Under the pieces are notes generated by a model. It had not been told where the DNA came from. It did not search any database and saw nothing but the letters and a program-made list of their open reading frames with translations. The translations under genes were made by a program, and so were the position numbers. A stretch of DNA of 64,000 bases from a virus (taxonomy: Duplodnaviria; Caudoviricetes), in the IMG/VR virus record IMGVR_UViG_3300035498_000575, positions 1 through 64,000 of that record. The stretch is one strand, 5' to 3'. This document shows positions 3,399 through 49,796 of this stretch, piece after piece; position 1 is the stretch's first letter, and each line of letters begins with the position of its first letter.

Positions 3399-3526
3399 AT
3401 ATAATCAATTCCTTTCTACTCTTAATTGACTACTCAATATATAACATTCTAAACGATTTTTAGAGAGCATATATCTGTTAATCATTTGTTTTATTTTCAA
3501 TTTAATATTAACGGTGAGATAGTCAT

Positions 3527-3735
3527 ACATTTTTTTACATTAATATAACCAATATAATATATATAAAGAAAGGATATGATGTATAATGGATAATATTATA
3601 TTAGAGAATATGTATTTTAGTCATAATATATCTTCATTAACAGATAAATATATTATAGAATGTTATGAAGATAGTTATATGTGTGAGTCAGTATTAGATA
3701 GTATTAAAACATTCTTTAGTAATTTAAAAGAAAAG
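3527..3735 (+). repeat. Cassette leader plus 5' coding block, near-identical to about 7394-7604
   Basis: TTTTTTACATTAATATAACCAAT...AAAGAAAGGATATGATGTAyAATGGATAATATTATATTAGAGAATATG... occurs in both places. Confidence 0.9.
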
Positions 3736-4719
3736 ATAAAAGATATATTTAATAAGATAATTAACGCAATAACTGGTAAAAGTAAAGATAATACAAATAA
3801 ACTAAATGAAATAGAAGATAAGATTAAAGATAATCCAGAATTAGGTAAACAGAAAGTACAAATAGCTGATCCTGATAAAGTAGAGAATGAGATAGATAAA
3901 CAAAAGAAAGAATATCTTAATAATAAGAATAAAGAAAAAGGTAAGTTTAAAGTAGATAAGAAGAAAGTTATAACAGTAGCTACAGTAACAGTATCATTGG
4001 CTGCAGCTGTAGTATTACTAAAGAAAGGTATAATTAAACTACCTAGTAAAGCTAAGAAGAGTCAAGATGAAGTAAATAAAACCATTAATAAATGTGAAGA
4101 AGAAGCTAATAAAGCTGTAGAGAACACAAAGGAAGATATTCGTGATGAAATTACTAGAAAAAGTAAACTTACCGAAAATGAACAATATAAAATTGAGAGA
4201 GAAAAAAAAGCAGCGGCTCTTTCTGTAGACGCATATAACGAACAGGTAAAGGCGGAACTTGAAATAATTGATCAAATGATAACTGAAGCAGATAAAGTTT
4301 GCAATCATATGAATGATAGGCTATATATTGACTTTCATAAAGCCCTTGGGTCTGGAGATAGACTTGATAGTGTTATTAGGTTGATAAACGAACGTCTAAG
4401 AAACAAACTTAAAGGAGAAAATTTTAATCCTAATAATAAAAATCACATGGATATGCTCAAAACAGGTTATCCTGATTTGTACGACCGCTATATGGATGCA
4501 GACCGCAAACATGATAGAGCTTATGATAAATTTTATAAATCTCAGAGCCATGTAGAAGCTAAGAAAGAGGAACTAAAGCGTCTAGCTAAAAGACAAAATT
4601 TACTAGGTGGAAAAGCCACGCCCCAAACAGAACATCCCACAATATTATCCTACGACGAGGTAAATCGAATTCGTGATATAGCACGTAAGACCGGCGAATA
4701 TCCTGATATGGATCTATAA
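3586..4719 (+). CDS. Putative internal head protein, paralog A
   Basis: N-terminus nearly identical to 7455-8441; xxE motifs (ILE, CYE, MCE-S) followed by amphipathic VLDSIKTFFSNLKEKIKDIF; next to the prohead protease. Confidence 0.6.
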   Translation: MDNIILENMYFSHNISSLTDKYIIECYEDSYMCESVLDSIKTFFSNLKEKIKDIFNKIINAITGKSKDNTNKLNEIEDKIKDNPELGKQKVQIADPDKVENEIDKQKKEYLNNKNKEKGKFKVDKKKVITVATVTVSLAAAVVLLKKGIIKLPSKAKKSQDEVNKTINKCEEEANKAVENTKEDIRDEITRKSKLTENEQYKIEREKKAAALSVDAYNEQVKAELEIIDQMITEADKVCNHMNDRLYIDFHKALGSGDRLDSVIRLINERLRNKLKGENFNPNNKNHMDMLKTGYPDLYDRYMDADRKHDRAYDKFYKSQSHVEAKKEELKRLAKRQNLLGGKATPQTEHPTILSYDEVNRIRDIARKTGEYPDMDL

Positions 4720-6629: not shown

Positions 6630-7354
6630 TGAATATGTCTAGACTCATAACTAGATTGAAGAGAAAATTGGGTATATACTCAATAGCCCTTCCTATTGAG
6701 AACACCGATGATTTCATACGTGAAATTATTGAAGATACAACAATCCCAGTATTCAGTCAATATAATTGTATCATTGAGCGAGTTAGATTTAATCTACATA
6801 ATTTAGAGAAGATCGAACAACGTGCTAACTACGAAACATATTTATTACCTGATGTTTTTAGTAACAGAGAAATATTATATGTTTCGGATGTGTCATACGA
6901 CGAAGCGACTATATCAGGAATAGGCTATTGGGGCGGTGGCGTTCCTCTAATGAGTGGCAGCTTTGTGAATCAATCTATACTAGCAAACGCTGGAAGTACA
7001 TTATCAAGTAGAATGATCCCAAAGTTGACATTTAAATACGAGCACCCAAGAAAAATCACGTTATACAATGTACTAAGCTCATGCCACCTAGTATTTGAGA
7101 TAGCATTTGCGCATGATAAATCGTTGGCATCAATTCCTCCAACCGCTGAGGAAAGTTTTTTTGAACTAGCATGTCTTGACGTTGAGGAAGCATTATATGG
7201 GATGCTAAAACACTACAATGAATTGGATAGCCCATACGGAAAAATAAATTTGAGAATAGATGATTATCAGTCTGCAGCACAAGATAGGAAACAACTATTG
7301 AATGAATGGGACGATAAATATCATCTCGATGGTAATAGTATATTTTGGGCATAA
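6629..7354 (+). CDS. Putative virion structural (neck/head-completion-like) protein
   Basis: Translationally coupled (TAATG) within the head operon; product inferred from context only. Confidence 0.4.
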   Translation: MNMSRLITRLKRKLGIYSIALPIENTDDFIREIIEDTTIPVFSQYNCIIERVRFNLHNLEKIEQRANYETYLLPDVFSNREILYVSDVSYDEATISGIGYWGGGVPLMSGSFVNQSILANAGSTLSSRMIPKLTFKYEHPRKITLYNVLSSCHLVFEIAFAHDKSLASIPPTAEESFFELACLDVEEALYGMLKHYNELDSPYGKINLRIDDYQSAAQDRKQLLNEWDDKYHLDGNSIFWA

Positions 7355-7367
7355 TAGACTAGTAATA

Positions 7368-7604
7368 GTATATATGTGGTATATACCACATATATACATT
7401 TTTTACATTAATATAACCAATAATATAATATATAAAGAAAGGATATGATGTACAATGGATAATATTATATTAGAGAATATGTATTTTGAACATAATATAT
7501 CTTCATTAACAGATAAATATATTATAGAATGTTATGAAGAATCATATGTATGTGAAAGTGTATTAGACAGTATTAAAACATTCTTTAGTAATTTAAAAGA
7601 AAAG
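7368..7604 (+). repeat. Palindrome plus cassette leader plus 5' coding block
   Basis: Shares the palindrome with 4804-4833 and the leader/N-terminal block with 3527-3735. Confidence 0.9.
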
Positions 7605-8441
7605 GTTAAGAATATATTCAATGATATATCTACTACGATAAAAGGTACGTTTAAAGAGAAACAAGACAAATTGAATAAGACGGCGTTAGATATTAAAAAG
7701 AATCCTAAGTTGTCGCGACAGAAAGTACAAATAACTGATCCTAATAAAGTAGAAGCAGAAATAGATAAACAAAAGAAAGAATATTTAAATAATAAGAATA
7801 AAGAAAAAGGTAAGTTTAAAGTAAACAAAAATGAGGTGCTAACCAAAGCCAAGGCTACGGTTACTTTAGATGTGGCAACTACATCATTAAAAAAGAAGTT
7901 TAATGAAATGCCCGATAAAGTTAAGCGAACAGAACAGGAAGTGATTAAGAGCGTAGATATGTGTGAAAAGGAAGCAAATGATTCTCTAGTGGCCGAGTTT
8001 GTTTGGAACAGAAACAATGATAAGTCAGCACAAGACAAAGCAGCAGAAATTGTACAGGTTGAGTCAGAAGCTTTAATTGCTGAATATGAAGCGTTGTCTG
8101 AAGAATATATCGAGCTACAACGAGCATTATTGGACGCTTTCTATATTGATTTTCGTATCAGTAGAGGAGACAGAGAAGGTTTAAATGATGACGATACTTT
8201 AGAAAAATATGCTAATATCGAACTTGATTTAGATAGTAAAATCGTAGGCGCGTATTATGACATAGGACAGCGACAGCAACAGTTAGATAAAATGAGGAGA
8301 AAAGGTAAAATAAATGATGACGAGTGGAACAGAGTGACGAACATCAACAATAAGCGTCAGAACGTTGTACCTGCTATGATCGCCGATTATAATCTTAAAG
8401 TTGATGAACTGGGCAAGCGATTTCCTTTAAATAATAACTAA
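7455..8441 (+). CDS. Putative internal head protein, paralog B
   Basis: MDNIILENMYFEHNISSLTDKYIIECYEE... and QKVQITDPNKVEAEIDKQKKEYLNNKNKEKGKFKV shared with paralog A; C-terminus unrelated. Confidence 0.6.
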   Translation: MDNIILENMYFEHNISSLTDKYIIECYEESYVCESVLDSIKTFFSNLKEKVKNIFNDISTTIKGTFKEKQDKLNKTALDIKKNPKLSRQKVQITDPNKVEAEIDKQKKEYLNNKNKEKGKFKVNKNEVLTKAKATVTLDVATTSLKKKFNEMPDKVKRTEQEVIKSVDMCEKEANDSLVAEFVWNRNNDKSAQDKAAEIVQVESEALIAEYEALSEEYIELQRALLDAFYIDFRISRGDREGLNDDDTLEKYANIELDLDSKIVGAYYDIGQRQQQLDKMRRKGKINDDEWNRVTNINNKRQNVVPAMIADYNLKVDELGKRFPLNNN

Positions 8442-16991: not shown

Positions 16992-19900
16992 CTACTTACT
17001 CGCTTGTAGTTGCTTAGCTTTACCGATTAATAGAGTCATGAATGTTGTACCCATATAAACGGTCTTGCGGTCTCTAGGATTTGTGAAGTCATTGAACTCA
17101 GTAGCATCATTATCAAGTCTATCAATAATACGAATTATATTATCAGCTACCATTAGAGCAGCTAGTGACATATCGTATCTTTCCTTAATCTTTTTAACGA
17201 ACTTGCTAATGTTGTTACCTGATAACTTCTTGTATTCTTCATTCATGAATATATCACAGATGTAGTCGTAAATCATATTCTCTTGTTCGTTCTCGGTCAT
17301 AGACTTATCGTATTTCTCAGGTAGAGCGTCTAGCATGATATCCATATCGTCAGCCATACCCTTCTTATACATCCTACCGATTCCGTTGTTTACACTAGTC
17401 TCATCATCTGAATTGATAGAATCAAGTTGGTCACATGCGCAGCAACTATACTTAATATAATCACGAATTACGTCAGTTCTCAAAGTATATCCTGTAGCTA
17501 TTGATACAACCTCTGCTATTTTGGATAAGTTAGTCTGACCTGATACAGATGATAATATATTACTAGCAGCTAGTCTAGGAATATGACGTAAATATGGACT
17601 ATCCATTATGTTGCTATTTTTCACATACTTATTCAATACAGTGCACACGTCATAAGCTTCTGTATTTTTCTTTACATTACAGATTAACTCAAAGACAGTC
17701 TTGTCATATAAATCAGCAAGGTCTGACCATATTTGGTCATCGTCTACATCTGTACTTATTTGAGTATGTTGTCCATTAGGTTGTCCGATAACCACGTTCT
17801 TAGCTTTTTCCTCTACGTTCGTAACATCAGCAACATCACTAAACACATTAACCATGAATTCGTTTTCTCTCTCAGTTGTCAATTCTTTATAGTCTCTCAA
17901 CAAATCCTTCGTTAGCACGTTAATGAATTCAATAGTACCTTCTTGAGTTATCACTGAGTTTAATTTAGCTTCATCACAGTTAGCTAACATTATAACATTC
18001 TTTTCTAACTCATTAATGGTGTCGTCGTCTACAGTTACCATAGTATATTGTAGCATAGTAGCGTAATACAAAATAGGTAGTGCTTCACCGTATTTCATCA
18101 TAGCGGTATTCTCAACTGCCTTATATGCGTTCGCTAGCTCTTGTTGGATATTCTTGAATACAGATTCGTTTATAGTATTATACAAGTCTATTCTGTATAT
18201 AATTCTAAACTTGTTCTCAAACTCCTCACTAGTAGGAATCCTATCTATAACCTCTAAACTACAGTTTTCATTTATAACTGAACCAGTGAATATTCTATCA
18301 ATACGCCACCAGTCACTGTTCTTAGAGTCGTCTATAAGTTCTTGAAAATCCTCATATTTATCAGCTGGGTCGTTGCTGGTATTAGTGGATTCTTCAAGAG
18401 CTTCTTCGTCTGTAGTACTTGGGTCGTTAGTACTATCAGATGATACAACTTCAAGAATAGCGTCTATAAATGGGATTAGATATTTTTCACTGTTTAGCTT
18501 TTCAATGAGTTCTCTGTATTCATTGAGTATGTCGTGAGCTTCTATTGTCATGTTGCTAGGTATGTCATTGATAGTGTCAGCTGTAGCATACAACATTATC
18601 AACTTCTCTTTATCATCTATAAACTTGAAGTATCTTTCAATTGATTCCACATGTTTAAATAGGATTTCGTCATCTAGAGAAGTTGATACTAGTAGTACAT
18701 CATCAAGGTCAATGTCAATATCAAAGCCTTGTTCGTGTAGAGATAATCCGAATGAATGCATTGCTGCACGGAATTCCTTTATATCGGTTAGGATTTCTCT
18801 TTTGGCAACGCTTCCAAGTGGTATCTCTCTGGAAACCTCTTTTGTTATCGCAATGGGGTCGCCTATTTCATATACACCTTCATCATCAGCGGTGTATGAT
18901 GCTTTTTCAGATATTCTGCTCAATATCTTACTACGACGTGCGTTGGTTATGTCATATAAAGACTTGTCCTCGTACTCGTTATTTAATACAATCGTATCCC
19001 ACTTTGGGTCATGGTCTTCATTGATTATATCCTCTAAAGTGACATCATCTAAGTCATCGCCTTCATCTTCTGAATCAGGTGTATCATCCTCATCATAATC
19101 TTCACATTCGGAAGCATAAGGACATTCTGTACAGTAAGGAGTATGTTCATCGCAATATGCATCGATGTACTCTTGTGATTTATGCTCTACATATGGGAAG
19201 CACTCATCATCATTATTAGATGCTTCCTTTATTAATGACTCTAGAGAACCTTCTTCACACTTTGTACTCTTACTATAACTTTCTTCGTTTTCGCAAATGT
19301 CGTTGTAAGGACAATCTCCACATGCTAGTTTATGCTCTTTACAAAATCCGTCAATATAATCTTGTGAAGCGTCGTCTTCATACGGAAACTCACCAAGCGC
19401 CAAGTCGTTATTACCACTTACTGCGAATAAGTATTCGCAGTAAATGGATTTGATTTCATCAATGCTGATAGCATTATTGTGATGTTGGTTACCAGTTGAA
19501 GTACAACCATCATTTCCACATTTTCCATCAAATGGGCAAACTGAGCAATTGTACATGATTAACTCATTGGAACATACAAAAGTCTCAAAGTCTGTCACTG
19601 ACCAATCTTTGGTGAACTCGATGTCATTACTAGCGTCAGCTATCTCAGCCTTAGTAATTTCAGTGAGATGTTCTAAATCTATCTCATCGGCTTCTTCTGG
19701 TACGTCTTCAGTTTCTTCAACTATGTCTGGAGCTTTGTCTTCTATAACAGCTTCACTACTGTATTCGACTTCTAATCCGTCATCCTCATTTAGTTCGGTA
19801 TTATCGTCAATGTCATCATCCGCATCATCAATATCGTCGCTGTCTGGGTCAGTTGGAGAAGTTGGATTATAATCGTTATAACGGTCAAATATCTCAATAA

Positions 19901-35580: not shown

Positions 35581-36672
35581 ATGGAACTTAGGGATAATTG
35601 CGTAAAGACATGGGGATTCGATAAAGTCCTAGCTATGTATGAAGAGATTCATAAGGTTAATCCAACACTAGCATTTTCTTCTAGAGGATCTGAGGTTCTT
35701 AATGAGCTAATGGTAAATATCACAATTCACAACATGACATTTATTGAATTCTTGACACTAAAAAACATAACTAAGTCAATATTGATATTGGACACGAAAA
35801 TTAATAAGTATTATTATCCAGAAAACGGTGAAGAAGTTTTTAGTATACTTAGTAAATTAAATAATGACGTTATGAGTAATGCTAGTAATATAAATGACCC
35901 ACTATCATTATTACCAATAAACGCTTTTACCTTAGATGTGTCTGCATCTTTTTCAGGAACTCAGTTATTACTATTTTCAAGCGGAACTATTGACAGCTTA
36001 TTAATGAAAAATAATAAGCTACTGACATTAGAAGAAGTTGAAAAAGGAATTCTAGATAGCTTTCCTGCAGCATTTTTTAGCTTCATGAATAAGTTTTTAT
36101 CAGGTTCAGATTTCGTCTCTGAATTAATGGTAAATTCCATGGTTTACGATTATTGTGATAAAGGAAAAAGTGATAGCTTAACAGTTGTTCGTGTTAGGGG
36201 TACAAATGATATTATTCAGTTCTCAGGCGGTGATGAAGCATCTATTTCTTCGGCGTTTAAAAATATGAAAGAGACTAGAACTATACAGGATGCCTCAATG
36301 GTTCTCTCATGTTATTCAAATCTTTCAACCTATGCACAATTTGTTTTATATTCGGATTATGTAACAGGAAACGTACCATTAAGAAACCTATTAGGACTTG
36401 ATAAATTTGGAGTAGATCCAAACCTAATGAGTACACACAAAAATAGAATAGTTGATGTTATGAAGAAATTTATGGTTGAGCGTCATAAGACATTATCAGA
36501 TCCAAAATATTCATTGATAAAATATTGCTGGTTATTATGCTCTGATAAAATAAACTATGAACTCACAATACCTCTAAGAGATGTGGAGAGTATTGAAAAC
36601 ATAAATAGGCTAGCTGATAATCATATTGACTCAATGATAAAGGAAATTAAGAAAGTTCAGATATTCATATGA
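35581..36672 (+). CDS. Hypothetical protein, possibly a degenerate tandem ThyX fold
   Basis: Segments echo the ThyX layout twice (DPLSLLPINA; SNLSTYAQ; KYCWLL...LTIPLRD) but there is no RHR motif. Confidence 0.35.
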   Translation: MELRDNCVKTWGFDKVLAMYEEIHKVNPTLAFSSRGSEVLNELMVNITIHNMTFIEFLTLKNITKSILILDTKINKYYYPENGEEVFSILSKLNNDVMSNASNINDPLSLLPINAFTLDVSASFSGTQLLLFSSGTIDSLLMKNNKLLTLEEVEKGILDSFPAAFFSFMNKFLSGSDFVSELMVNSMVYDYCDKGKSDSLTVVRVRGTNDIIQFSGGDEASISSAFKNMKETRTIQDASMVLSCYSNLSTYAQFVLYSDYVTGNVPLRNLLGLDKFGVDPNLMSTHKNRIVDVMKKFMVERHKTLSDPKYSLIKYCWLLCSDKINYELTIPLRDVESIENINRLADNHIDSMIKEIKKVQIFI

Positions 36673-36713: not shown

Positions 36714-36907
36714 GCTATGCTTTAATCAATATAGGAGATTGCCTTTTAAAATGTAAAGGTAGGTTTCTTCATATCAGTTATTAAATTAACTGTTAATATA
36801 TAAAAATTTAATTATGGTCACTTTTTAAAAGTACGGAATTTTCCGTAATTGAGTTATTTTTGAAAAATTTTTTGCATACTATTATCGTATTATAGCTATA
36901 ACTCTCA

Positions 36908-37098
36908 TCCGGCTTGGGGCTTCGCCCCTTACCCCTGCCGCCAGGCGTACCCTTCAGGACCTACTTACCTACACTATATTAAAATATTATATATATGTAA
37001 AAAAATTTTTTTTATTTTTTGATCATTTTTTTAAATAGAAAATGAAGTTAAAAATATATAAAAAAAATGGGGTGGGGTTATCCCTTCGGGAAGCCAGA
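36908..37098. other. Pair of mirror-arranged GC-rich hairpin modules flanking a mostly A/T spacer
   Basis: Left TCCGGCTT-GGGGC(TTC)GCCCC-TTACCCC; right (reverse complement) TCTGGCT-TCCC(GAA)GGGA-TAACCCC. Confidence 0.6.
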
Positions 37099-37187
37099 TT
37101 TAAAAAAGTAATTATGATTAACATTTAGTTAGGATAGATATATTTTTCTAAGTCTATCTATAAAAATAATAAAAGGAGGTGAAAAAT

Positions 37188-38597
37188 ATGAATAGAAATC
37201 TTAGTTATACAAAAATAAGATTATATCCAAATATGAATACATTCAGAAAACTAAAAGTAATGACAGATTATTATTCTGAGTGGTATAATGAAAAATATGT
37301 TTCATTCAGTGGCAATGAGAATAAATATGAATCATGTAATTTACACTACAAATATAATTCTAAGCCATATGATATAGAAGAAACTAAAAAGTTATCTAAT
37401 ACTTTCTGTATACCTAATTCATGGGTATCTATGGAGTATGGTGAAATAACTAATATGAAGGATATGTTATCAACAAGAAGAATGTATAGATACATAAACT
37501 TCAATCCAGATAGAATATCAGTAGAATTAAGTTCTGATGGAAAAAGATGTAACTTAAGAATAACTGAGCATAATAATTTAACTATCGCTATTAATGATAG
37601 ACGATTTAATATATATGATGAAGATCATTTTCTAGGTCTTCAAACTGACAGTATAAAGTCATGTAGGATAGTAATGTATGATAGTCATGAAGGTGATATC
37701 AATACATTGAATAGATATAAATTCTATTTAGTGCTTGGTTTTCAATGTGTAGACATTACTCCAGCCAGAAAACAATATGAAAAGTTTGTCAATGAAAATG
37801 AGCATGTTGGTTTGGATGTAGGAGTTTCAAATTTATGTACGTTATCAAAACCAGTTACAATAAACGGAAAAACTACTAGGCTAATAAAATGGCCCAGTAA
37901 GAATCTAAAATTAAAACATCATATTTATGTATTACGTGATAAATTGACTAAGTTAACAAATAGAAAGAGGTCAGTAATGTATAAATCTGGTCAGCGAATG
38001 CCTAGAATTAAAGACATGATGACATCAGATGAGGAACTATCTAAGTTATATTACGAATTACGTAGATGTGAAGAAAAACTGATGAATCAAAGAAGAACTT
38101 TTATACAAAACTTTGTTAGATATTTATTCAGCGTTTATCCTGTTGTATGTATGGAACATGACTTACGCTGGAGATCGCAATATCAAAACACAATTAAATA
38201 TTTTTCATTCATGATTTCATGCGGTGACTATCTACAGTCGTACATAAAATCATATGTTAGAAAGCATGGATATGTTGTGGTTCAAACACCAAGACAATTT
38301 AGTAGTTCACACTGCTGTTCAACAGTGTTGGAATACGATTTGAATGGTAGACCTATATCATTTTGTAATGGATATATCAGTACAACAAATTTGCCTATAA
38401 GTAAACGTGATTGGAGATGTCCTAAATGTGGTGCATATCACAATAGAGATATCAACGCAGCTAGAAACATAGAGCAAGTTGGTGACATGTGCATAGATTA
38501 CAAGTTGATTAACGGAAGATACCCAACTAAAAACGTTCATGTGATTACAGGAAAATTAAGATACAAAAAACCAATGTCATACGAATGGTTAAATTAA
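37188..38597 (+). CDS. tnpB: TnpB-like (IS200/IS605 OrfB, Cas12f-related) RuvC nuclease, full length
   Basis: KIRLYPN N-terminus; VGLDVG (RuvC-I); VCMEHDL (RuvC-II); SSHCCS...CPKCG Zn finger; HNRDINAARNI (RuvC-III); AGGAGG RBS. Confidence 0.88.
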   Translation: MNRNLSYTKIRLYPNMNTFRKLKVMTDYYSEWYNEKYVSFSGNENKYESCNLHYKYNSKPYDIEETKKLSNTFCIPNSWVSMEYGEITNMKDMLSTRRMYRYINFNPDRISVELSSDGKRCNLRITEHNNLTIAINDRRFNIYDEDHFLGLQTDSIKSCRIVMYDSHEGDINTLNRYKFYLVLGFQCVDITPARKQYEKFVNENEHVGLDVGVSNLCTLSKPVTINGKTTRLIKWPSKNLKLKHHIYVLRDKLTKLTNRKRSVMYKSGQRMPRIKDMMTSDEELSKLYYELRRCEEKLMNQRRTFIQNFVRYLFSVYPVVCMEHDLRWRSQYQNTIKYFSFMISCGDYLQSYIKSYVRKHGYVVVQTPRQFSSSHCCSTVLEYDLNGRPISFCNGYISTTNLPISKRDWRCPKCGAYHNRDINAARNIEQVGDMCIDYKLINGRYPTKNVHVITGKLRYKKPMSYEWLN

Positions 38598-38716
38598 ACA
38601 ACGATGGAATCTTTAAGATTTCGGAAGGTACAAAGCCTAAATTCTTTGTAAAAACATATAAGTTGTCCCAAGGTGTTGACGCACCTTGGGACTCAATTAG
38701 CCTCGCCTATTTTCAT
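38598..38716 (+). ncRNA. Candidate omegaRNA/right-end RNA for the TnpB-like protein
   Basis: Consecutive hairpins after the stop codon, ending GTCCCAAGGTG-ttgacg-CACCTTGGGAC-TCAA. Confidence 0.4.
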
Positions 38717-38963
38717 AACAGTTACATCAAGGATTTTACATGCTATACTAAGGCAAAACTATACTAGTAACTGATATGTTAAATGTTTTCACATCGCTAA
38801 TTCGAAAGATATAAATCTTTACTAAAATGTTATATGTATCTGCAAATTTTAATATCTTAATCTATCAAAAATGCGTACATTTAGCCGATTTTTATATTTA
38901 TGTATAAGATAAAAACAATCCTGTAATAAGAAATAAATCTATAATATTTATGAGGTGATTAAA

Positions 38964-41900
38964 ATGGATTTAAGAATAATTAAAAAGAATGGGGAACTTC
39001 AAGATTTTGATATGAATAAAATCATAACAGCTGTCAATAAATCTGCAAATAGAGTGATGGTAGATTTCACAGATGATGATATAAGACAATTGAAAATGAA
39101 CGTTAGATCTATGTGCGCTGATTACTGTAATACACATGATGATCTAATTCCAATAGAGGTAATGCACAATATCGTTGAAGTTTCTCTCGATAAAGTAAAT
39201 AAGGATGTAGCGACTTCATACAGAGAATATAGAAATTACAAAACTAGTTTTGTAGAGATATTAAATAATGTCTACAAAAAGGTGCAGTCAATTATGTACA
39301 TAGGAGACAAAGACAATGCAAACACTGACAGTGCCCTAGTTTCAACAAGAAGAAGTTTGATCTACAATCAATTGAATAAAGAACTTTATCAAAAGTTCAA
39401 TATGAGACCTGATGAAGTCCAAGCATGTAAAGATGGATATATTTACATACATGATATGGTAGCAAGGAGAGATACAATAAATTGCTGCTTATATGATATG
39501 GAAAAAGTTTTAACTGGTGGATTTGAAATGGGTAACGTTTGGTATAACGAACCAAAAACCATAGATACAGCTTTTGATGTTATGGGAGATATCGTTCTAT
39601 CAGCTGCAGCACAACAGTATGGAGGATTTACAATTCCTGAAGTTGATAAGATATTAGAGCCATATGCAATAAAAACGTATGAAATGTATCGCGACGAATT
39701 TGCAGAATGTAATGGTTATACTAGCTATGATAGGATGTTGTGCACAATAAAGAGTTTCTTTGGTTCTAGTGAACAGAATAGGATTCGTTCTAGATGTGAA
39801 GAATATGCGAAGAAGAAGTTAAATCGAGATATTGAACAAGGTTTCCAAGGTTGGGAATATAAATTCAATACAGTAGGTTCTTCACGTGGTGATTACCCAT
39901 TTATATCTATCTCATTTGGATTATGTGATAGTGAATTTGGTAAGATGATAAACAAGGCATGTTTAAAGGTAAGAATGAATGGACAGGGAAAAAAGGGAAA
40001 TAAGAAACCGGTTTTATTTCCTAAACTTACTTTTTTATATGATCACAATATACATGGAGAAGGTTGTTCGTCAGAAGATGTTTTTGAAGCAGCCATTAAT
40101 TGCTCACAAAAAGCCATGTATCCTGACTACTTATCTTTAACAGGAGAAGGTTACATCCCATCTATGTACAAAAAGTATGGTAAGGTAGTAAGTTTAATGG
40201 GTTGCGTGCATGGCGACTCTGAAGTAACTATTTCTTCGGCAGAAAATGGGCAAGAAGATATAAAAATTAGTGATTTATGGAATCGCTTAACAGATGATGG
40301 GTATAACGTATTAGAACAGATTGAAGGTGAAGACAGATTTACATACATCGATTTTAGCGAAGGCGGTGCACAGATAGATATATATGACCAAATGACTGGA
40401 TATGTACGCGTTAGAAAGATAATTAAAAATAAAACTAACGAATGGATTTTATTTAAATTCGGCAATGGTGAGCAATTACAATGCACACCAGATCATCCAC
40501 TCCCAATATTCTATAAAGGAAGAATAAGGGCAGATGAAGTTTGTATTGGTGATGAGATCCATTGCTATGATGATGTTGAAGATGGTAATTCAACCAGAGT
40601 AGTAAGTATCCAGCACATACCTTGTCATATGGAAGATAGTTACGATGTGGAAACTGATACAGATCATTTCACAGTAAATAATATCTGGTCACACAATTGC
40701 AGGGCATCACTATCACCTTGGTATGAAAGAGGTGGTATGGAACCAGCAGACGATGACGACTATCCAGTTTTTGTTGGTAGGTTCAACATGGGCGCTATCT
40801 CTTTAAATCTCCCGTTGATACTAGCCAAAGCTAGAAAAGAGAATAGAGATTTTTATGAAGTTCTTGAGTTTTATATGACAATGATTAGAAGGATACATTT
40901 GAGGACTTATGAATATATTGGTGAAATGAAAGCTAGCACCAACCCACTTGGATTCTGTGAAGGTGGATTCTACGGAGGTCATTTGCAACCAGATGAAAAG
41001 ATAAAACCTCTTCTAAAACCTATGACTATGTCATTTGGTATTACTGCATTAAACGAATTACAAAGATTATATAACGGAAAATCACTACATGAAGATGGTG
41101 AATTTTCTCTTGAGGTCATGAAGTGGATTAATAATAAGATAAATGAATACAAACATGAAGATGGTATATTATATGCAGTATATGGATCACCAGCAGAGAG
41201 TTTATGCTTCTCAGGTGACACACTAGCGTGGACAGAAGACGGAAGAATTCCAATTAAAGATCTTAAAGAGGGAACAAGAGTTTTCTCATACGATGAAACT
41301 AGTGGAGACACAGTTCTCAAGCCAATAGTAAGTCAAAAGATGACATCTCCATCCGATAGGACTATGTATGTTCATTTTGAAAATGGAGACTGTATTTTAT
41401 GTACGTTCTTCCACCCATTTGCTGTATTAAACGGCGATGGTACCAGCATAAAGTATAAACCTGCATATCTTTTAACTGAAGGAGATAATGTTGTGACATC
41501 TAGTGGTACTGTCAGATTTTCAAATTTCTCAAGCATGCTTGAGGATATTCCGGTATATAATATAGAAGTTGAAGACTTACATAATTACTTTGTATGCTCT
41601 ACCAAGGAATCTGATGCCTACCTAGTACATAACTGCGGTCTACAAGCTGAGCAATTTAAGAAATTATATGGTGTAATAGAGAATGTCTCAGATAGAGGAT
41701 ATGTATCCAACAGTTTTCACGATCATGTTACCGAAGACATCACAGCTATAGAAAAACAGAATGACGAAGGTAGATTTTGGGATCTGTTTAATGGTGGTAA
41801 GATACAATACTGTCGCTATCCATTGAATTATAATGCAGAAGCGATGAGGATTATTGTACGTCGTGCTATGGATAAAGGTTTTTATGAGGGCGTTAATATG

Positions 41901-42086
41901 AGCTTAGCTTATTGTGACGACTGTGGTCATAGTGAGTTGGAAATGGATGTGTGTCCTAAATGTGGTAGCAGGAATTTAACTAAAATAGATAGAATGAATG
42001 GATATCTAGCTTATTCAAGAGTTAAGGGTGATACAAGATTGAATAAAGCTAAGATGGAAGAAATAAAAGATAGAAAAAGCATGTAA
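38964..42086 (+). CDS. nrdD: Anaerobic ribonucleoside-triphosphate reductase with two inteins
   Basis: ATP cone, YIYIHD, INCC, FPKL, MG|CR, CDDC...CPKC, glycyl-radical loop RMNGY. Confidence 0.95.
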   Translation: MDLRIIKKNGELQDFDMNKIITAVNKSANRVMVDFTDDDIRQLKMNVRSMCADYCNTHDDLIPIEVMHNIVEVSLDKVNKDVATSYREYRNYKTSFVEILNNVYKKVQSIMYIGDKDNANTDSALVSTRRSLIYNQLNKELYQKFNMRPDEVQACKDGYIYIHDMVARRDTINCCLYDMEKVLTGGFEMGNVWYNEPKTIDTAFDVMGDIVLSAAAQQYGGFTIPEVDKILEPYAIKTYEMYRDEFAECNGYTSYDRMLCTIKSFFGSSEQNRIRSRCEEYAKKKLNRDIEQGFQGWEYKFNTVGSSRGDYPFISISFGLCDSEFGKMINKACLKVRMNGQGKKGNKKPVLFPKLTFLYDHNIHGEGCSSEDVFEAAINCSQKAMYPDYLSLTGEGYIPSMYKKYGKVVSLMGCVHGDSEVTISSAENGQEDIKISDLWNRLTDDGYNVLEQIEGEDRFTYIDFSEGGAQIDIYDQMTGYVRVRKIIKNKTNEWILFKFGNGEQLQCTPDHPLPIFYKGRIRADEVCIGDEIHCYDDVEDGNSTRVVSIQHIPCHMEDSYDVETDTDHFTVNNIWSHNCRASLSPWYERGGMEPADDDDYPVFVGRFNMGAISLNLPLILAKARKENRDFYEVLEFYMTMIRRIHLRTYEYIGEMKASTNPLGFCEGGFYGGHLQPDEKIKPLLKPMTMSFGITALNELQRLYNGKSLHEDGEFSLEVMKWINNKINEYKHEDGILYAVYGSPAESLCFSGDTLAWTEDGRIPIKDLKEGTRVFSYDETSGDTVLKPIVSQKMTSPSDRTMYVHFENGDCILCTFFHPFAVLNGDGTSIKYKPAYLLTEGDNVVTSSGTVRFSNFSSMLEDIPVYNIEVEDLHNYFVCSTKESDAYLVHNCGLQAEQFKKLYGVIENVSDRGYVSNSFHDHVTEDITAIEKQNDEGRFWDLFNGGKIQYCRYPLNYNAEAMRIIVRRAMDKGFYEGVNMSLAYCDDCGHSELEMDVCPKCGSRNLTKIDRMNGYLAYSRVKGDTRLNKAKMEEIKDRKSM
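40203..40697 (+). mobile_element. Mini-intein 1 (165 aa) in NrdD
   Basis: CVHGDSEV...CTPDHP...YDVET...IWSHN|C; no LAGLIDADG domain. Confidence 0.92.
41205..41633 (+). mobile_element. Mini-intein 2 (143 aa) in NrdD
   Basis: CFSGDT...CTFFHPF...VYNIEVEDLHNY...LVHN|C. Confidence 0.92.
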
Positions 42087-43548: not shown

Positions 43549-46500
43549 ATGCCAGAAAAAGTCAATAATGCTGATAACTTGTTAGCCGCAATGGGTAATA
43601 ATACGTTCAGCTTACAACAGACGCATGAGAGTGCTGTGAAAGCGATGCAGAACTCATATGTATATCTATCTAAGCTTCAACGAGCTATTGTGGATTACCA
43701 TACGCCTACGGAGTATAGTAGTTTTGACTCACTATCAATAGATGACAAATATGATGTGGTCATACATGTACCATACAATATTATTCATCCAGATGACAGA
43801 AGAAAGTACAGAATTAGTGAATTTTATGACAAAGATATAACGATGGATGATATAATCAATAATCCTGATATTTTCAGATATTTTCCTGTTGTTATTATTG
43901 ATGAGCAAGTCGTCTGTATTAAAAAATATAGATTCACTTTAAATGAGACGTTTGATGTTGTATTAGATATTGACAAGTCCTATAGACTCGACGAGCATAG
44001 GGTAAAAGTATTCATATTTGACAATTATTATATAAGTGATGATAGGGTTACTAGGAAAACATTCGTCAATAATGGATATAAGTTTAATTCTAGGAATATT
44101 CTTAGGAAGTGCCCAAGTGATTTTAATGGCACAATATTTTTATATTTTCATAATGGGTTTACAGTATTCGGTAGTAACTTATATGCGGTGGATCCTTCAT
44201 ATAAAACAACAGGAATGATTGATATATCAGCTGGTATTACTGAAGAAACTCTACATCAAGTTCTTGAGGATTCTACTTTATTTTATGTATATGCTATATT
44301 TGTACCTGACTTATATAAATCGGAAGTATTCGACTATAAGAATCCATACCTTGTTCTTCCTGATGACTATAGTATGCCTGTGCCTAAGGAGAATATAGTG
44401 GTAGTTAGTTACAAACCTGAGACAGGTTCTATGATGGAAGTTATTAAACCTACTGAGCATATTTATCCTAATATTTACAAATTTGATTGTGAACCTGATA
44501 AATCATATCAAGCTTATTATTTCTACAAGGATGACGAGGACAAAATTCTTAAGTTTAATAATAAATTTAAATTCTTCTTTGATTACCTTGAATATAAGTA
44601 TAGTAGGAGCACGACTCAGATGCTTTTCAATAATATTATGAATGGAAGCATTGAACTTAGCGATAATATGAGTAATTATTTGGATAAAGTAATCAATTAT
44701 GTGGATCCTTCGTATGATTATACCAATAAGAACTTTGATGAATCAAATTTACTATCATTTGATTATAAAACTGGAAAGTTAAGAGAGTTTATAGATTATG
44801 ATCCATGGATATTGAAAGACTACATAATAGATCAAAATAAAGTGGGATATAGAAGATATCTGTACGTGAAAGACATTGACCTAGCATCTAGATACAGGTT
44901 AAACACATTCGCGGAGTCAACCTGTGAAAAGGATAATTTGGTATTTGATGAGCCCAGATATGTTTTCATGTTTAAGAATGATTATCCTAATATACTTCAT
45001 ATAAGATTTTATGTAGATGGTATTATATGTCCTATTCCACATTCTGTACTTGCACACGGAATTGAGTATTACTACGTCCCAGCATCTATGTTTAAAGATG
45101 ACAGTGTTGTAGAGATTGAAAGACTAGACCAATACAGATTTAGAGAAAAGTTGAATTGTCAATTAGATGTAGAAGGTAATTATTCTCAGATTATACAATT
45201 TCCACAATTCAATAATGCAAACCCTACTGTGTTTGATATTTATTTCACTGACGCATATGATAGACGACTCACATATTCTGCATTTAAAGTTGAGTCATTG
45301 ACTGATGGTGCTAAATATTCTATCAATATCAATGAGCAGTCAATTGATTTCAGTGACAAGAATATGCTTGAGAAAATATCGTTTTTTGATTCAAATGATA
45401 ACCAATATTTTGTTAAGAATGGAAAATTAGTTGATAGTGAAGGTAATGTGTATAAGGGTTCTTATGATGTACGAGGAACTACAGAAATAGAGCATATAAA
45501 GATACAAAACGTAATCTTGACTAACACCAATGATCAAGGAATAGAGGGAGATATAACTTTATATGACACATCTGGAGCAGAAACTTCTTTTAATGATATC
45601 AAATTTAAGGTTGATGACATAGGAGAAGTATTGGGATACAATAATAGTTTCCTATTTTTGAAGAGTGGTGTTAAGGTAACTCTTGTTGGTACTATGTATA
45701 AAGATAAAGACGTGTGGATAAACGTTAACAAGCATTCTAGAGGTTTTAATTTCTTTGTTGAATGTCCGTCTGTTCCTAATTTAGTAATACCGGAGGTTAA
45801 TATACTTCACAGAAGAAGAAAAGAATATATGAGAGTATTCTTAAATGGTAAATTACTACATCCAGATAGTTGGATATTTAAGTATGTTAAGAAAAAAGGT
45901 TATATCCGAATTGCGTTGAAGAAAGCGTGTAAAAAGGGTGATGTTGTTAGTGTTGACATGAACGTAAACGCATATCGTATTGAGTATCACCTAACAGAAA
46001 TACCAGAAGATTATATAATTGATGTCAATCATTTCTTAGATAAACCTCTAGCATTAGAATATTATGATATATATGTAAATGGTAGGAAACTTAATGAATC
46101 GAATGTTACTATTCTTACCCCAACTAAGATGATACTCAGTGGGGTACACTCAAGGAAGGATTTACAAATTATATCTAAGGATAGGGACCCAGAATACTAC
46201 GGATTTGATGAAAATGGTTGTACTACTGAACTGGATGAATTCATTGACTCTGTATTACCAGAAGATGATAAAGGAGAATTCTATCAACATTTAGTTAACG
46301 AGATTAACCCAAACGCTGACGGTGACAATATTATTTCTGATGATAGTGAAGAATATTTATTAGAAGACGTAGTTTATAACGAAAGAGACTACAATAGGTG
46401 GGCTTTTTACTTCAATGAGCTTTCGCCTATCGGTCATCTTAACCCTGATCTTGTGCAGTTCAACTATTTGCGTTTAAAGCAATATTACCCTTATATCAAT

Positions 46501-48696: not shown

Positions 48697-48726
48697 AAGA
48701 AGCAAGACTTTATGGTCTTGCTTCTT
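48697..48726. terminator. Bidirectional terminator overlapping the stop of TnpB-like gene 2
   Basis: AAGAAGCAAGAC-tttatg-GTCTTGCTTCTT flanked by A/T tracts. Confidence 0.75.
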
Positions 48727-49720
48727 CTTGTTTCAATATTAAATTTTCAATTCGACTATATCCTTCATTTGCTATCACTTTAGCGGCATTCACATCCCTG
48801 TCATGTATTTCACCACACACAGGACAAATGTATCTTCTTATTGTACACATGTCATGTATGTTGTAAGGCATATCCATTTTCATCTCATCGAGTACTGTAA
48901 TCCAACCGTTATTGATATTCTTACGTCTCTTTTTAACCGTAGTTAATCTTAGCTTAGGAATTTTGAACTCTTCGTCAGCTAGCAGATTGTATTGGTCTAT
49001 GACTATATTGCTTCTTTGAGTTGCTAAATCGTATGATTTAGCAGTATGTTTATTTTGTAGTGTACCTGTAATTGCAGAATTTACTGTATGTATACAGTTG
49101 TTGTATCTGGTCACGTTTCTTAAAAGAGTATGGTCTAAGTCAAGGAAGTTAGCACCATCAACCATTTGACTTTTTGTAAAAACTTCCATTGTATGGTTGC
49201 ATCTATATGTACTAATATATCCATAATCTAGTTGTATGCAACCAATTTCTTTCTCTTTACAAATAGATATTATATAGTCTTGTAGCCAGTCAATCACCCT
49301 TCCAATTATTTGAGCATCAACCCAGTATCTGTACTTTTCTCTTGAGTTAATGTCATCTCTGTCAATATTGTCCATTAGTTGTTTTTCTAAACATATAGCG
49401 TGTTCTATGACTAGAACTTTAATTTCATTCTCCTCTAGAATATTTTCAAGCTCCTTTTTCAATTGATCTTTTCTTTGGTTAATCATATTGATTATATTTC
49501 TTTCGACATCACTTCTACATTTTTCTGATGGGTACACAACGACTCCGTTTATTATATCGGCAGCGTTTTGTGTCCAAGTTACTGTATGCATGAAGTCTTG
49601 AGAAAACACCAGTTTTTGTGTCATCTTGCCATATAACGACAATGGCCTACTGAATGTTATAGGTGACGTCTTACCAACATCAATGCCTATTACATAATTA
49701 AATAGTTCATCAGTTTTCAT
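48710..49720 (-). CDS. TnpB-derived RuvC/Zn-finger protein lacking the N-terminal lobe
   Basis: VIGIDVG at residues 10-16, VLVIEH, CPVCGEIHDRDVNAAKVI; GGAGGT RBS. Confidence 0.8.
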   Translation of the reverse strand: MKTDELFNYVIGIDVGKTSPITFSRPLSLYGKMTQKLVFSQDFMHTVTWTQNAADIINGVVVYPSEKCRSDVERNIINMINQRKDQLKKELENILEENEIKVLVIEHAICLEKQLMDNIDRDDINSREKYRYWVDAQIIGRVIDWLQDYIISICKEKEIGCIQLDYGYISTYRCNHTMEVFTKSQMVDGANFLDLDHTLLRNVTRYNNCIHTVNSAITGTLQNKHTAKSYDLATQRSNIVIDQYNLLADEEFKIPKLRLTTVKKRRKNINNGWITVLDEMKMDMPYNIHDMCTIRRYICPVCGEIHDRDVNAAKVIANEGYSRIENLILKQEEARP

Positions 49721-49796
49721 TTATTATTACCTCCAATATATTTTATTTAGTAGTCCTGTAGGATGTAGCCTACAGGACGATTAAGTGATTTGACAA

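Follow-up and report, generated by a model that had tools for sequence, protein, structure and literature searches.

A predicted solo TnpB of unusual divergence in an AR9-like jumbo phage

Introduction

TnpB proteins, the transposon-type nucleases from which CRISPR-Cas12 descends, act on behalf of the elements that encode them by RNA-guided cutting of element-free sites, at which repair restores the element, and a tnpB gene standing without a transposase is the usual state of these genes. What is such a solitary gene doing in the genome of a giant phage: serving the phage, spreading itself, or simply lingering? The question is raised by a tnpB-like gene in an uncultured phage, for which an original prediction, made from the letters of the DNA and its open reading frames, had proposed a domesticated RNA-guided nuclease, used by the phage against host or competitor DNA or as a regulator, rather than a passenger insertion sequence (IS). 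That proposal listed the missing transposase among its observations; because this is the usual state of tnpB genes, we did not take it as evidence of domestication. A solo TnpB in a phage is a known situation, and our data show no use of the gene by the phage. What we find, judging from sequence and from models built on it, is a TnpB that is genuine, stands alone in an AR9-like jumbo phage and is unusually divergent, and the proposed domestication comes out neither supported nor refuted.

A distant relative of the AR9/PBS1 phages

The window (the whole stretch of DNA that was analysed, 64,000 nucleotides) corresponds to the opening 64 kb of an IMG/VR virus record of 102,416 bp that is estimated to be 42% complete. 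It has a G+C content of ~33% and contains no tRNAs and no Rfam families at gathering thresholds, and a search of the full 102 kb at the same Rfam thresholds likewise returned no match. The phage encodes a multisubunit RNA polymerase beta subunit of 1,393 amino acids, which matches the phage RNAP-beta PHROGs (E = 1e-158) and is ~31% identical to its homologues in the Bacillus phages Goe21/PBS1 and also in the Staphylococcus jumbo phages S6, PALS_2 and MarsHill and the Listeria phage LPJP1. On the strength of this similarity, we consider this uncultured phage to be distantly related to the AR9/PBS1 group of giant (jumbo) phages.

A second IMG/VR contig (G001; 124,892 bp, estimated to be 52% complete) opens with a 126-nt stretch that is 100% identical to the start of the record in inverted orientation, and the two contigs also have a repeated ~150-nt intergenic element in common. 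This companion contig is probably the rest of the same genome, which would bring the total to ~227 kb.

Within the record, the tnpB unit is intergenic. The uncharacterised gene upstream stops at 36672 and has its own terminator hairpin; the gene downstream is nrdD, which is complete at its start (it begins with the ATP-cone) and carries at least one intein. Neither megablast of the tnpB locus nor tblastn and pattern scans with the upstream 363-amino-acid protein found a related phage in which synteny or an empty site could be inspected. The features of the locus are collected in Table 1.

Table 1. Features at and around the tnpB locus, in window coordinates.
Feature	Positions	Strand	Remarks
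Repeated intergenic element (~150 nt), copy A, with GC-rich hairpins	36861..37003	+	Just upstream of the tnpB unit
Inverted partial copy of the hairpin module of the element	37074..37099	-	21 nt before the AACA motif
AACA-N6-TA core, candidate AR9-type late promoter	37120..37131	+	Predicted start A 37131, 57-nt leader; extended match weak
Shine-Dalgarno AAGGAGG	37173..37179	+	8 nt before ATG 37188; read from the sequence
tnpB-like CDS, 469 aa	37188..38597	+	ORF, Pfam, PHROG, structure model, alignments
Candidate omega-RNA scaffold	38534..38696	+	Four consecutive predicted stem-loops, 3' end of the CDS and 3' UTR
Second RuvC/TNB gene, 336 aa	48710..49720	-	Starts at RuvC-I, without a WED/REC lobe; homologue P0139 (350 aa)

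An intact but divergent member of the TnpB family

The reading frame of tnpB is open from a GTG at 37179 to 38597 on the plus strand (472 codons). We consider the ATG at 37188 to be the most likely true start, because an AAGGAGG lies 8 nt upstream of it and because an independent gene call yielded the identical 469-amino-acid protein. The AGGAGG ribosome-binding site that had been claimed for the gene is indeed there, and it is a strong one.

The predicted layout of the protein is that of a TnpB: a putative WED/REC N-lobe, a split RuvC domain (D210, E323 and D421) and a TNB zinc ribbon (C377, C393, C411 and C414). It clears the cut-off of the Pfam model Cas12f1-like_TNB (PF07282; 48.1 bits, cut-off 26.3) and aligns with the PHROG phrog_506, annotated 'transposase', from residue 8 to residue 436 (E = 2.5e-22). 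Whole-protein models score it lower, in every case under their curated cut-offs: 22.9 bits with Pfam OrfB_IS605 (cut-off 30.5), 71.7 bits with NCBIfam guided_TnpB (cut-off 100; E = 6.7e-20), 50.6 bits with IS200_TnpB (cut-off 425) and 39.6 bits with IS607_TnpB (cut-off 350). By these scores the protein classifies, as far as profiles can tell, as a homologue of the TnpB family but a divergent outlier.

The catalytic and zinc-binding residues are intact, in agreement with what the original prediction had read from the gene. The three acidic residues (D210 in GLDVG, E323 in CMEHD and D421 in RDINAA) are invariant in both of the full-length relatives described below, in which the four cysteines are conserved as well, and an alignment of 70 TnpB sequences has E323, D421 and all four cysteines as invariant positions and D210 as a nearly invariant one. 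An insert of 15 residues separates C377 from C393, which makes the first half of the zinc ribbon atypical.

We modelled the protein with AlphaFold2 from 70 sequences (mean pLDDT 68.6, pTM 0.70). The RuvC/TNB part of the model is confident and the N-lobe poor, with low confidence over residues 41–176; the order of its strands and helices agrees with WED-REC-WED, at a pLDDT of <50 for residues 41–130. RNA binding by the N-lobe is an assumption on our part. The best Foldseek matches were the TnpB–omega-RNA complexes 8h1j (E = 2.3e-11) and 8iaz, at a TM of only 0.44–0.55, with LaTranC, Cas12f and Fanzor2 coming after the TnpB complexes. At the level of sequence, matches in the PDB comprised TnpB, LaTranC and Cas12m chains, with the E and D motifs aligned in the matches to TnpB of ISDra2.

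Set beside the TnpBs of ISDra2 and ISFba1 (PDB 8H1J, 8EXA, 8BF8 and 8IAZ), the modelled phage protein appears to share their overall fold, with Foldseek E-values of 2e-11 and 5.5e-11, and their order of a putative WED/REC lobe, split RuvC and TNB; it has the same D-E-D triad and four-cysteine ribbon and a similar size (469 versus 408 amino acids). It differs from them in its identity, which is 13–16% in structural alignments, with sequence matches confined to the C-terminal 150 residues; in the insert in its zinc ribbon; in the lack of a TnpA and of an LE/RE hairpin pair; in an omega-RNA that is only a candidate; and in its setting, a lytic-type jumbo phage rather than a bacterial chromosome. 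We regard the locus as a real gene whose product is intact, probably active and one of the RNA-guided DNA nucleases of the TnpB (OMEGA) family.

The codon usage of tnpB fits the phage better than that of the average gene does (−0.829 versus −0.939 ± 0.063), with a GC content of 0.296. This fit is weak evidence of long residence in the phage, as a host could be equally AT-rich.

A rare clade with two full-length relatives

When we searched 1.84 billion representatives exhaustively with HMMER, only two protein clusters aligned with the phage TnpB over its full length: P0003 (481 amino acids, 33–34% identity) and P0004 (403 amino acids, 29–30% identity), with E-values of 1e-43 and 4e-30. All further matches had E ≥ 4.9e-10 and mostly covered the C-terminal RuvC/TNB part alone. 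Both clusters come from short ENA and Logan metagenome contigs, 10.5 kb in the case of P0004; P0003 also has the members P0153–P0159. Together with the phage protein the two clusters form a clade with an SH-aLRT support of 99–100% and a long stem. At an identity of ~30%, the two relatives retain the same residues from end to end, the C-terminal S-Y motif among them, which argues for purifying selection on the clade.

Other searches added nothing to this clade. Scans with patterns drawn from the clade alignment found no relative in IMG/VR, JGI metagenome contigs or GTDB genomes; scans with P0003 alone or P0004 alone found distant generic TnpBs only; and the ESM Atlas gave nothing but generic TNB clusters. 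A tblastn search of INPHARED matched 61 phage records, the best at 24–32% identity over 48–65% of the protein, and by this measure the clade is not represented in INPHARED. The solo 'transposase' (TnpB/OrfB) genes of phrog_506, such as those of Lactobacillus phage Bromius, Streptococcus thermophilus phages and Enterococcus phage EFP01, resemble the present gene in being phage-borne, single and transposase-less, but they are no closer to it than these best matches, and no AR9-group phage is among the matches listed. As judged by these searches and the tree, the phage TnpB belongs to a rare, deeply branching clade.

No transposase, second copy or element ends

As had been reported for the window, tnpB is unaccompanied by a transposase: neither a Y1 TnpA (PF01797) nor a serine recombinase (PF00239) is encoded in the 102-kb record or the 125-kb companion contig. 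Near-identical copies with IS ends at several loci would be the mark of an ordinary non-autonomous IS, and we looked for them. There is no second copy of tnpB in the ~227 kb of phage DNA, where the sole other TNB-bearing gene is the 336-amino-acid gene listed in Table 1, and no IS ends accompany the single copy. Around the unit we detected neither direct or inverted flanking repeats above chance nor terminal repeats, and no LE/RE pair in the style of IS200/IS605, the hairpins upstream (37083–37091) and downstream (38665–38692) of the gene being dissimilar. JGI metagenome contigs contain no exact match to the downstream hairpin.

A candidate late promoter and a candidate omega-RNA

Late promoters of AR9 read AACA-N6-T-A/G, the last base being the start (PMC5312081). 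Promoters of this type are recognised by nvRNAP, and the present phage encodes a homologue of the AR9-group RNAP beta subunit. The original prediction had described a perfect phage late promoter upstream of tnpB. The 12-mer itself is present exactly (Table 1). With up to two mismatches allowed, it is not enriched (13 found versus 21.7 expected), and another exact copy is found within an ORF, at 46286; we estimate that identical 12-mers are expected by chance in AT-rich DNA. The class to which the 12-mer belongs is a different matter. In the record we counted 39 sense-direction occurrences of AACA-N6-T(A/T) in the 120 nt ahead of 79 crude gene calls, versus 14.4 ± 3.8 in shuffles and 18 in the antisense direction, an enrichment of 2.7-fold over the shuffles. 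Because of this sense-direction enrichment upstream of genes, the promoter class is real in this genome; its extended consensus in the phage is approximately aAACA-ATT-nnn-TAa, and about a third of the upstream core matches are expected by chance.

To the extended consensus the tnpB site conforms poorly. Scored with a leave-one-out matrix over both contigs, it reaches 8.7 bits, versus medians of 12.7 bits for upstream sites and 5.6 bits for other sites, and so ranks among the lowest-scoring 14% of upstream sites; of the sites elsewhere, 18% score as high or higher. The claimed promoter is therefore right as to the motif and its class and wrong as to its perfection, and we judge the chances that the site is a working late promoter to be roughly even. 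No early-type promoter precedes tnpB; the early consensus of the phage, of which there are ~13 near-identical copies, consists of an AR9-like A/T-rich element followed by G.

On the other side of the gene, the four stem-loops predicted across the end of the coding sequence and the 3' UTR are a plausible candidate for an omega-RNA scaffold. The last of them is an 11-bp GC-rich hairpin (38665–38692) that begins 68 nt after the tnpB stop codon, in a 358-nt spacer between that stop codon and nrdD, and it is followed by TCAA (38693–38696) with no U-tract; the other genes of this phage mostly have long, A/T-flanked hairpins within a few bases of their end. Folding of the 3' region did not differ significantly from that of shuffled sequences (z = −1.6), and Rfam models matched nothing meaningful around tnpB at E ≤ 5–10. 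The 363 nt after the stop codon share no stretch of more than 13 nt with the remainder of the 227 kb of phage DNA, and because of this a self-targeting or self-regulating guide is not supported by the sequences at hand.

A repeated element upstream of tnpB

The ~150-nt element shared by the two contigs has one of its three copies (A) just upstream of the tnpB unit, and one hairpin is swapped among the three. The other two copies (B and C) have no adjacent tnpB, and we treat the element as context that the present data do not tie to the tnpB system. The inverted partial copy of its hairpin module (37074–37099) can pair with 36907–36935 across ~135 nt of A/T-rich DNA. Rfam models gave nothing meaningful on the element at E ≤ 5–10. 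We rejected the idea that the element ends in an AR9-type early promoter, as the early consensus of the phage differs at three of five positions before a shared heptamer, and also an origin of the locus by insertion of tnpB into a copy of the element, as the sequence that follows on from copies B and C is not picked up again beyond tnpB.

A second, headless RuvC/TNB gene

The 336-amino-acid protein begins 12 residues ahead of the RuvC-I aspartate and retains the E, the D and the CxxC half-site. Its homologue P0139 matched it with E = 4e-37 in a local search. The segment that follows RuvC-I had been described as common to this gene and tnpB, implying diversification inside the phage lineage. 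The likeness is borne out: the segment of the 336-amino-acid protein scores 60 with P0139, 59 with the phage TnpB, 57 with P0004 and 56 with the P0003 cluster, and the next score among the remaining ~145 TnpBs is 48. Diversification of the two genes inside the phage lineage is allowed by these data but not shown by them. The phylogeny that had been suggested as a check recovered the deep, long-stemmed clade of the phage TnpB, and its whole-protein trees separate that clade from the headless one, both on very long branches. Monophyly of the two clades taken together was not rejected by an AU test with 28 rows (p-AU = 0.59); the constrained, monophyletic tree was better by 2.8 log-likelihood units, with long-branch attraction a possible factor.

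What might maintain tnpB in the phage

Four kinds of explanation were weighed for the gene. The one that we tentatively prefer, with somewhat less than even confidence, is that of a selfish TnpB without a transposase, adapted to the phage and acting as an RNA-guided nuclease for homing or gene drive. During infection, tnpB would be transcribed, possibly from the weak late-type AACA-N6-TA promoter, and TnpB would cut the 3' part of its own transcript into an omega-RNA, with the flank after hairpin 38665–38692 as guide. The targets of the complex would be sister genomes, co-infecting or replicating, that are without the insertion; once these had been cut, recombinational repair would copy the element in, which amounts to homing or gene drive. 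In this scheme, expression of the gene, its omega-RNA, the guide used and a role in homing are steps that we infer.

TnpB is reported to be frequent in phages (PMC12607003), a cyanophage copy of TnpB is described as identical to IS copies of the host (10.64898/2026.02.14.705889), and gene drive by TnpB in multicopy plasmids has been shown for IS200/IS605 TnpB (PMC11870625). We favour homing or gene drive here because the pool of replicating jumbo-phage genomes is itself a multicopy setting and because the neighbouring nrdD carries an intein, a sign that the setting is rich in selfish elements. That only two full-length relatives exist in the searched data, on a long stem, and that the codons fit would point, weakly, to long residence in AT-rich phage-like genomes. 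Counted against homing are the folding of the 3' region (z = −1.6), the missing Rfam match, the fact that no LE/RE or TAM is defined, the weak promoter, the NCBIfam and OrfB_IS605 scores below cut-off and the poor AlphaFold2 N-lobe.

Several of the same observations would also suit a stranded relic, which we think rather unlikely: a TnpB unit that was once mobile, has since lost its transposase and perhaps a working guide RNA, and is carried along at no cost or a slight one, its ORF as yet undecayed. Such a relic would be expected to look much as this locus does in having no detectable omega-RNA signal, no IS ends, no partner transposase, a weak promoter and, in the first half of its zinc ribbon, an atypical arrangement with a 15-residue insert between C377 and C393. 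Decay is hard to reconcile, however, with a 469-codon frame that is fully open and keeps all catalytic and zinc residues, with a strong ribosome-binding site and with codon usage that fits the phage, and relatives at ~30% identity keep the same residues, down to the C-terminal S-Y motif.

Domestication, in the sense of a nuclease kept for the benefit of the phage, expressed late and with its guide fixed on host DNA, on a competing phage or mobile element, or on a phage or host promoter, strikes us as unlikely. Its model case is TldR, the RNA-guided repressor of temperate phages, which like the present protein is a phage-encoded TnpB descendant without a transposase (PMC10705468, PMC13418256), and such exapted phage TnpBs are a precedent in favour of the idea. 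The signs of exaptation are loss of nuclease residues and new guide targets (PMC10705468). Repressors of the TldR kind are defined by missing RuvC catalytic residues or a truncated C terminus, together with a guide that matches a promoter. TldR has lost its RuvC catalytic residues and its guide matches a host promoter; the phage TnpB, by contrast, has an intact triad, and we found no guide–target pair for it in the 227 kb. The single copy without transposase or recognisable IS ends, the deep and rare clade, the phage-like codon usage and the late-type promoter core with its strong ribosome-binding site would all sit well with a phage tool, as would the clade-specific post-RuvC-I motif in the headless RuvC/TNB gene and the AU result on joint monophyly. 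They have to be set against a promoter site in the weak tail of its class, a downstream region whose lack of long matches leaves self-regulation unsupported, and searches that found no relatives and hence no conservation across phages.

A broader version would join the two TnpB-like genes. The clade of the phage TnpB with P0003 and P0004 and the headless clade (the 336-amino-acid protein with P0139) might be one phage-resident lineage of RNA-guided nucleases, long out of transposons and diversified in jumbo phages. Its full-length form would be expressed late and kept as a weapon or a drive against the genomes of rivals, and its headless form would be a derivative that works without a guide or with one supplied in trans; we consider this broader version quite improbable.

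Last, an IStron-type element (a chimera of group I intron and TnpB, known from clostridia) or a type V CRISPR effector (miniature Cas12) is barely credible and largely refuted: the long-range helix of 36907–36935 with 37074–37099, followed by the AACA motif, does resemble an IStron layout, but the tnpB unit lies between genes rather than inside one (the upstream gene ends with its terminator at 36672 and the ATP-cone of nrdD is complete), group I and II intron models have no match around tnpB even at E ≤ 5, the structured upstream element is independent of tnpB and occurs twice without it, and a CRISPR-like array is absent both between 30 and 52 kb and among the local repeats, as is any match to a CRISPR repeat family in the window.

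If the gene is truly a phage-retained and active nuclease, it would give the nuclease-dead TldR exaptations a counterpart that is still competent as a nuclease, and it would add a compact (469-amino-acid), very divergent scaffold to the TnpB/Cas12 toolbox. As it stands, the locus documents AR9-like jumbo phages as carriers of deep-branching solo TnpBs, and it offers a simple test case for TnpB gene drive between co-infecting phage genomes.

Traces of the locus in sequencing runs

A search of sequencing runs returned three, each with only 5–6% of the words. One is an animal-gut metatranscriptome, in which three read-length contigs are identical to parts of tnpB (37181–37331, 37420–37569 and 38402–38558) and none is identical to the flanks. 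We did not count these contigs as expression of tnpB, as their depth is ~2, DNA carry-over is possible and the uncovered parts prove nothing. The other two runs are from freshwater and contain fragments with 1–3 differences per 151 nt, one of them inside tnpB and the rest in upstream genes. The single joint seen in the runs (39868–40713) belongs to an unrelated nrdD without the intein-sized piece.

Two contigs, probably of one genome

The reverse complement of the first 126 nt of the full 102,416-bp record (G000, which includes the window) was 100% identical to the start of IMGVR_UViG_3300035498_000778 (G001; 124,892 bp; positions 1-278, stretch L008), and this identity falls inside a repeated acidic coding region. 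The estimated completeness was 42% for G000 and 52% for G001. The two contigs are probably pieces of a single genome of ~227 kb.

Repeated elements

At least seven copies of a ~600-nt block, comprising a leader and the 5′ part of a gene, occur over G000 and G001 with 74–93% identity. These blocks represent a multigene family whose members have the promoter and N terminus in common.

We also found three copies of a ~150-nt intergenic element, each in an unrelated context. Its A/T portion is promoter-like, and the GC-rich core after it contains two hairpins. Between copies, G/C swaps leave the stems intact; hairpin 1 of copy A is inverted relative to that of copies B and C, no two of the three copies are alike in hairpin 2, and only copy A has an inverted partial module (37074-37099). 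The element, which had no match in Rfam, could represent either a gene for a small structured RNA or a mobile promoter–stem-loop cassette.

Also present across the whole record is an A/T-rich element with a G 5–6 nt further on; its ~13 near-identical copies resemble the consensus of AR9 early (virion RNAP) promoters, and several of them overlap the AACA core of AR9-type late promoters.

Coordinates of repeated elements and other features (window or G000 positions unless stated)
Feature	Position	Strand
~600-nt block	window 3525-4124 and 7351-7967	
~600-nt block	G000 101844-102416	
~600-nt block	G001 about 82.0-85.6 kb and 124.4-124.9 kb	
~150-nt element, copy A	window 36861-37003	+
~150-nt element	G000 100436-100585 = 17436-17585 of its stretch L006	+
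~150-nt element	G001 19310-19461 = about 6790-6935 of stretch L007	-
Early-type sites, examples	16923, 20402, 30058, 31588, 51059, 56559, 57415, 77000, 79856, 90228, 94778, 97649	-
Metatranscriptome contigs identical to tnpB	window 37181-37331, 37420-37569, 38402-38558	
nrdD	window 38955-42086	+
Headless RuvC/TNB gene	window 48710-49720	-
GC-rich hairpin across headless gene's stop	48697-48726	
GC-rich hairpin near headless gene	49753-49778	

The tnpB gene and other genes

In a metatranscriptome library from animal gut, three contigs of read length matched parts of tnpB identically, at a depth of ~2 that is therefore no proof of its transcription.

The second RuvC/TNB gene encodes a 336-amino-acid 'headless' protein that lacks a WED/REC lobe and carries a long insert N-terminal of the CxxC half-site. 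Because a 350-amino-acid homologue (P0139) exists, the headless protein represents a family rather than a one-off truncation.

The anaerobic ribonucleotide reductase NrdD (ATP-cone and NRDD) has its NRDD domain broken into three stretches. One Hint/intein domain was found at residues 757-890; a second insert, of a size to be an intein, lies around residues 415-560.
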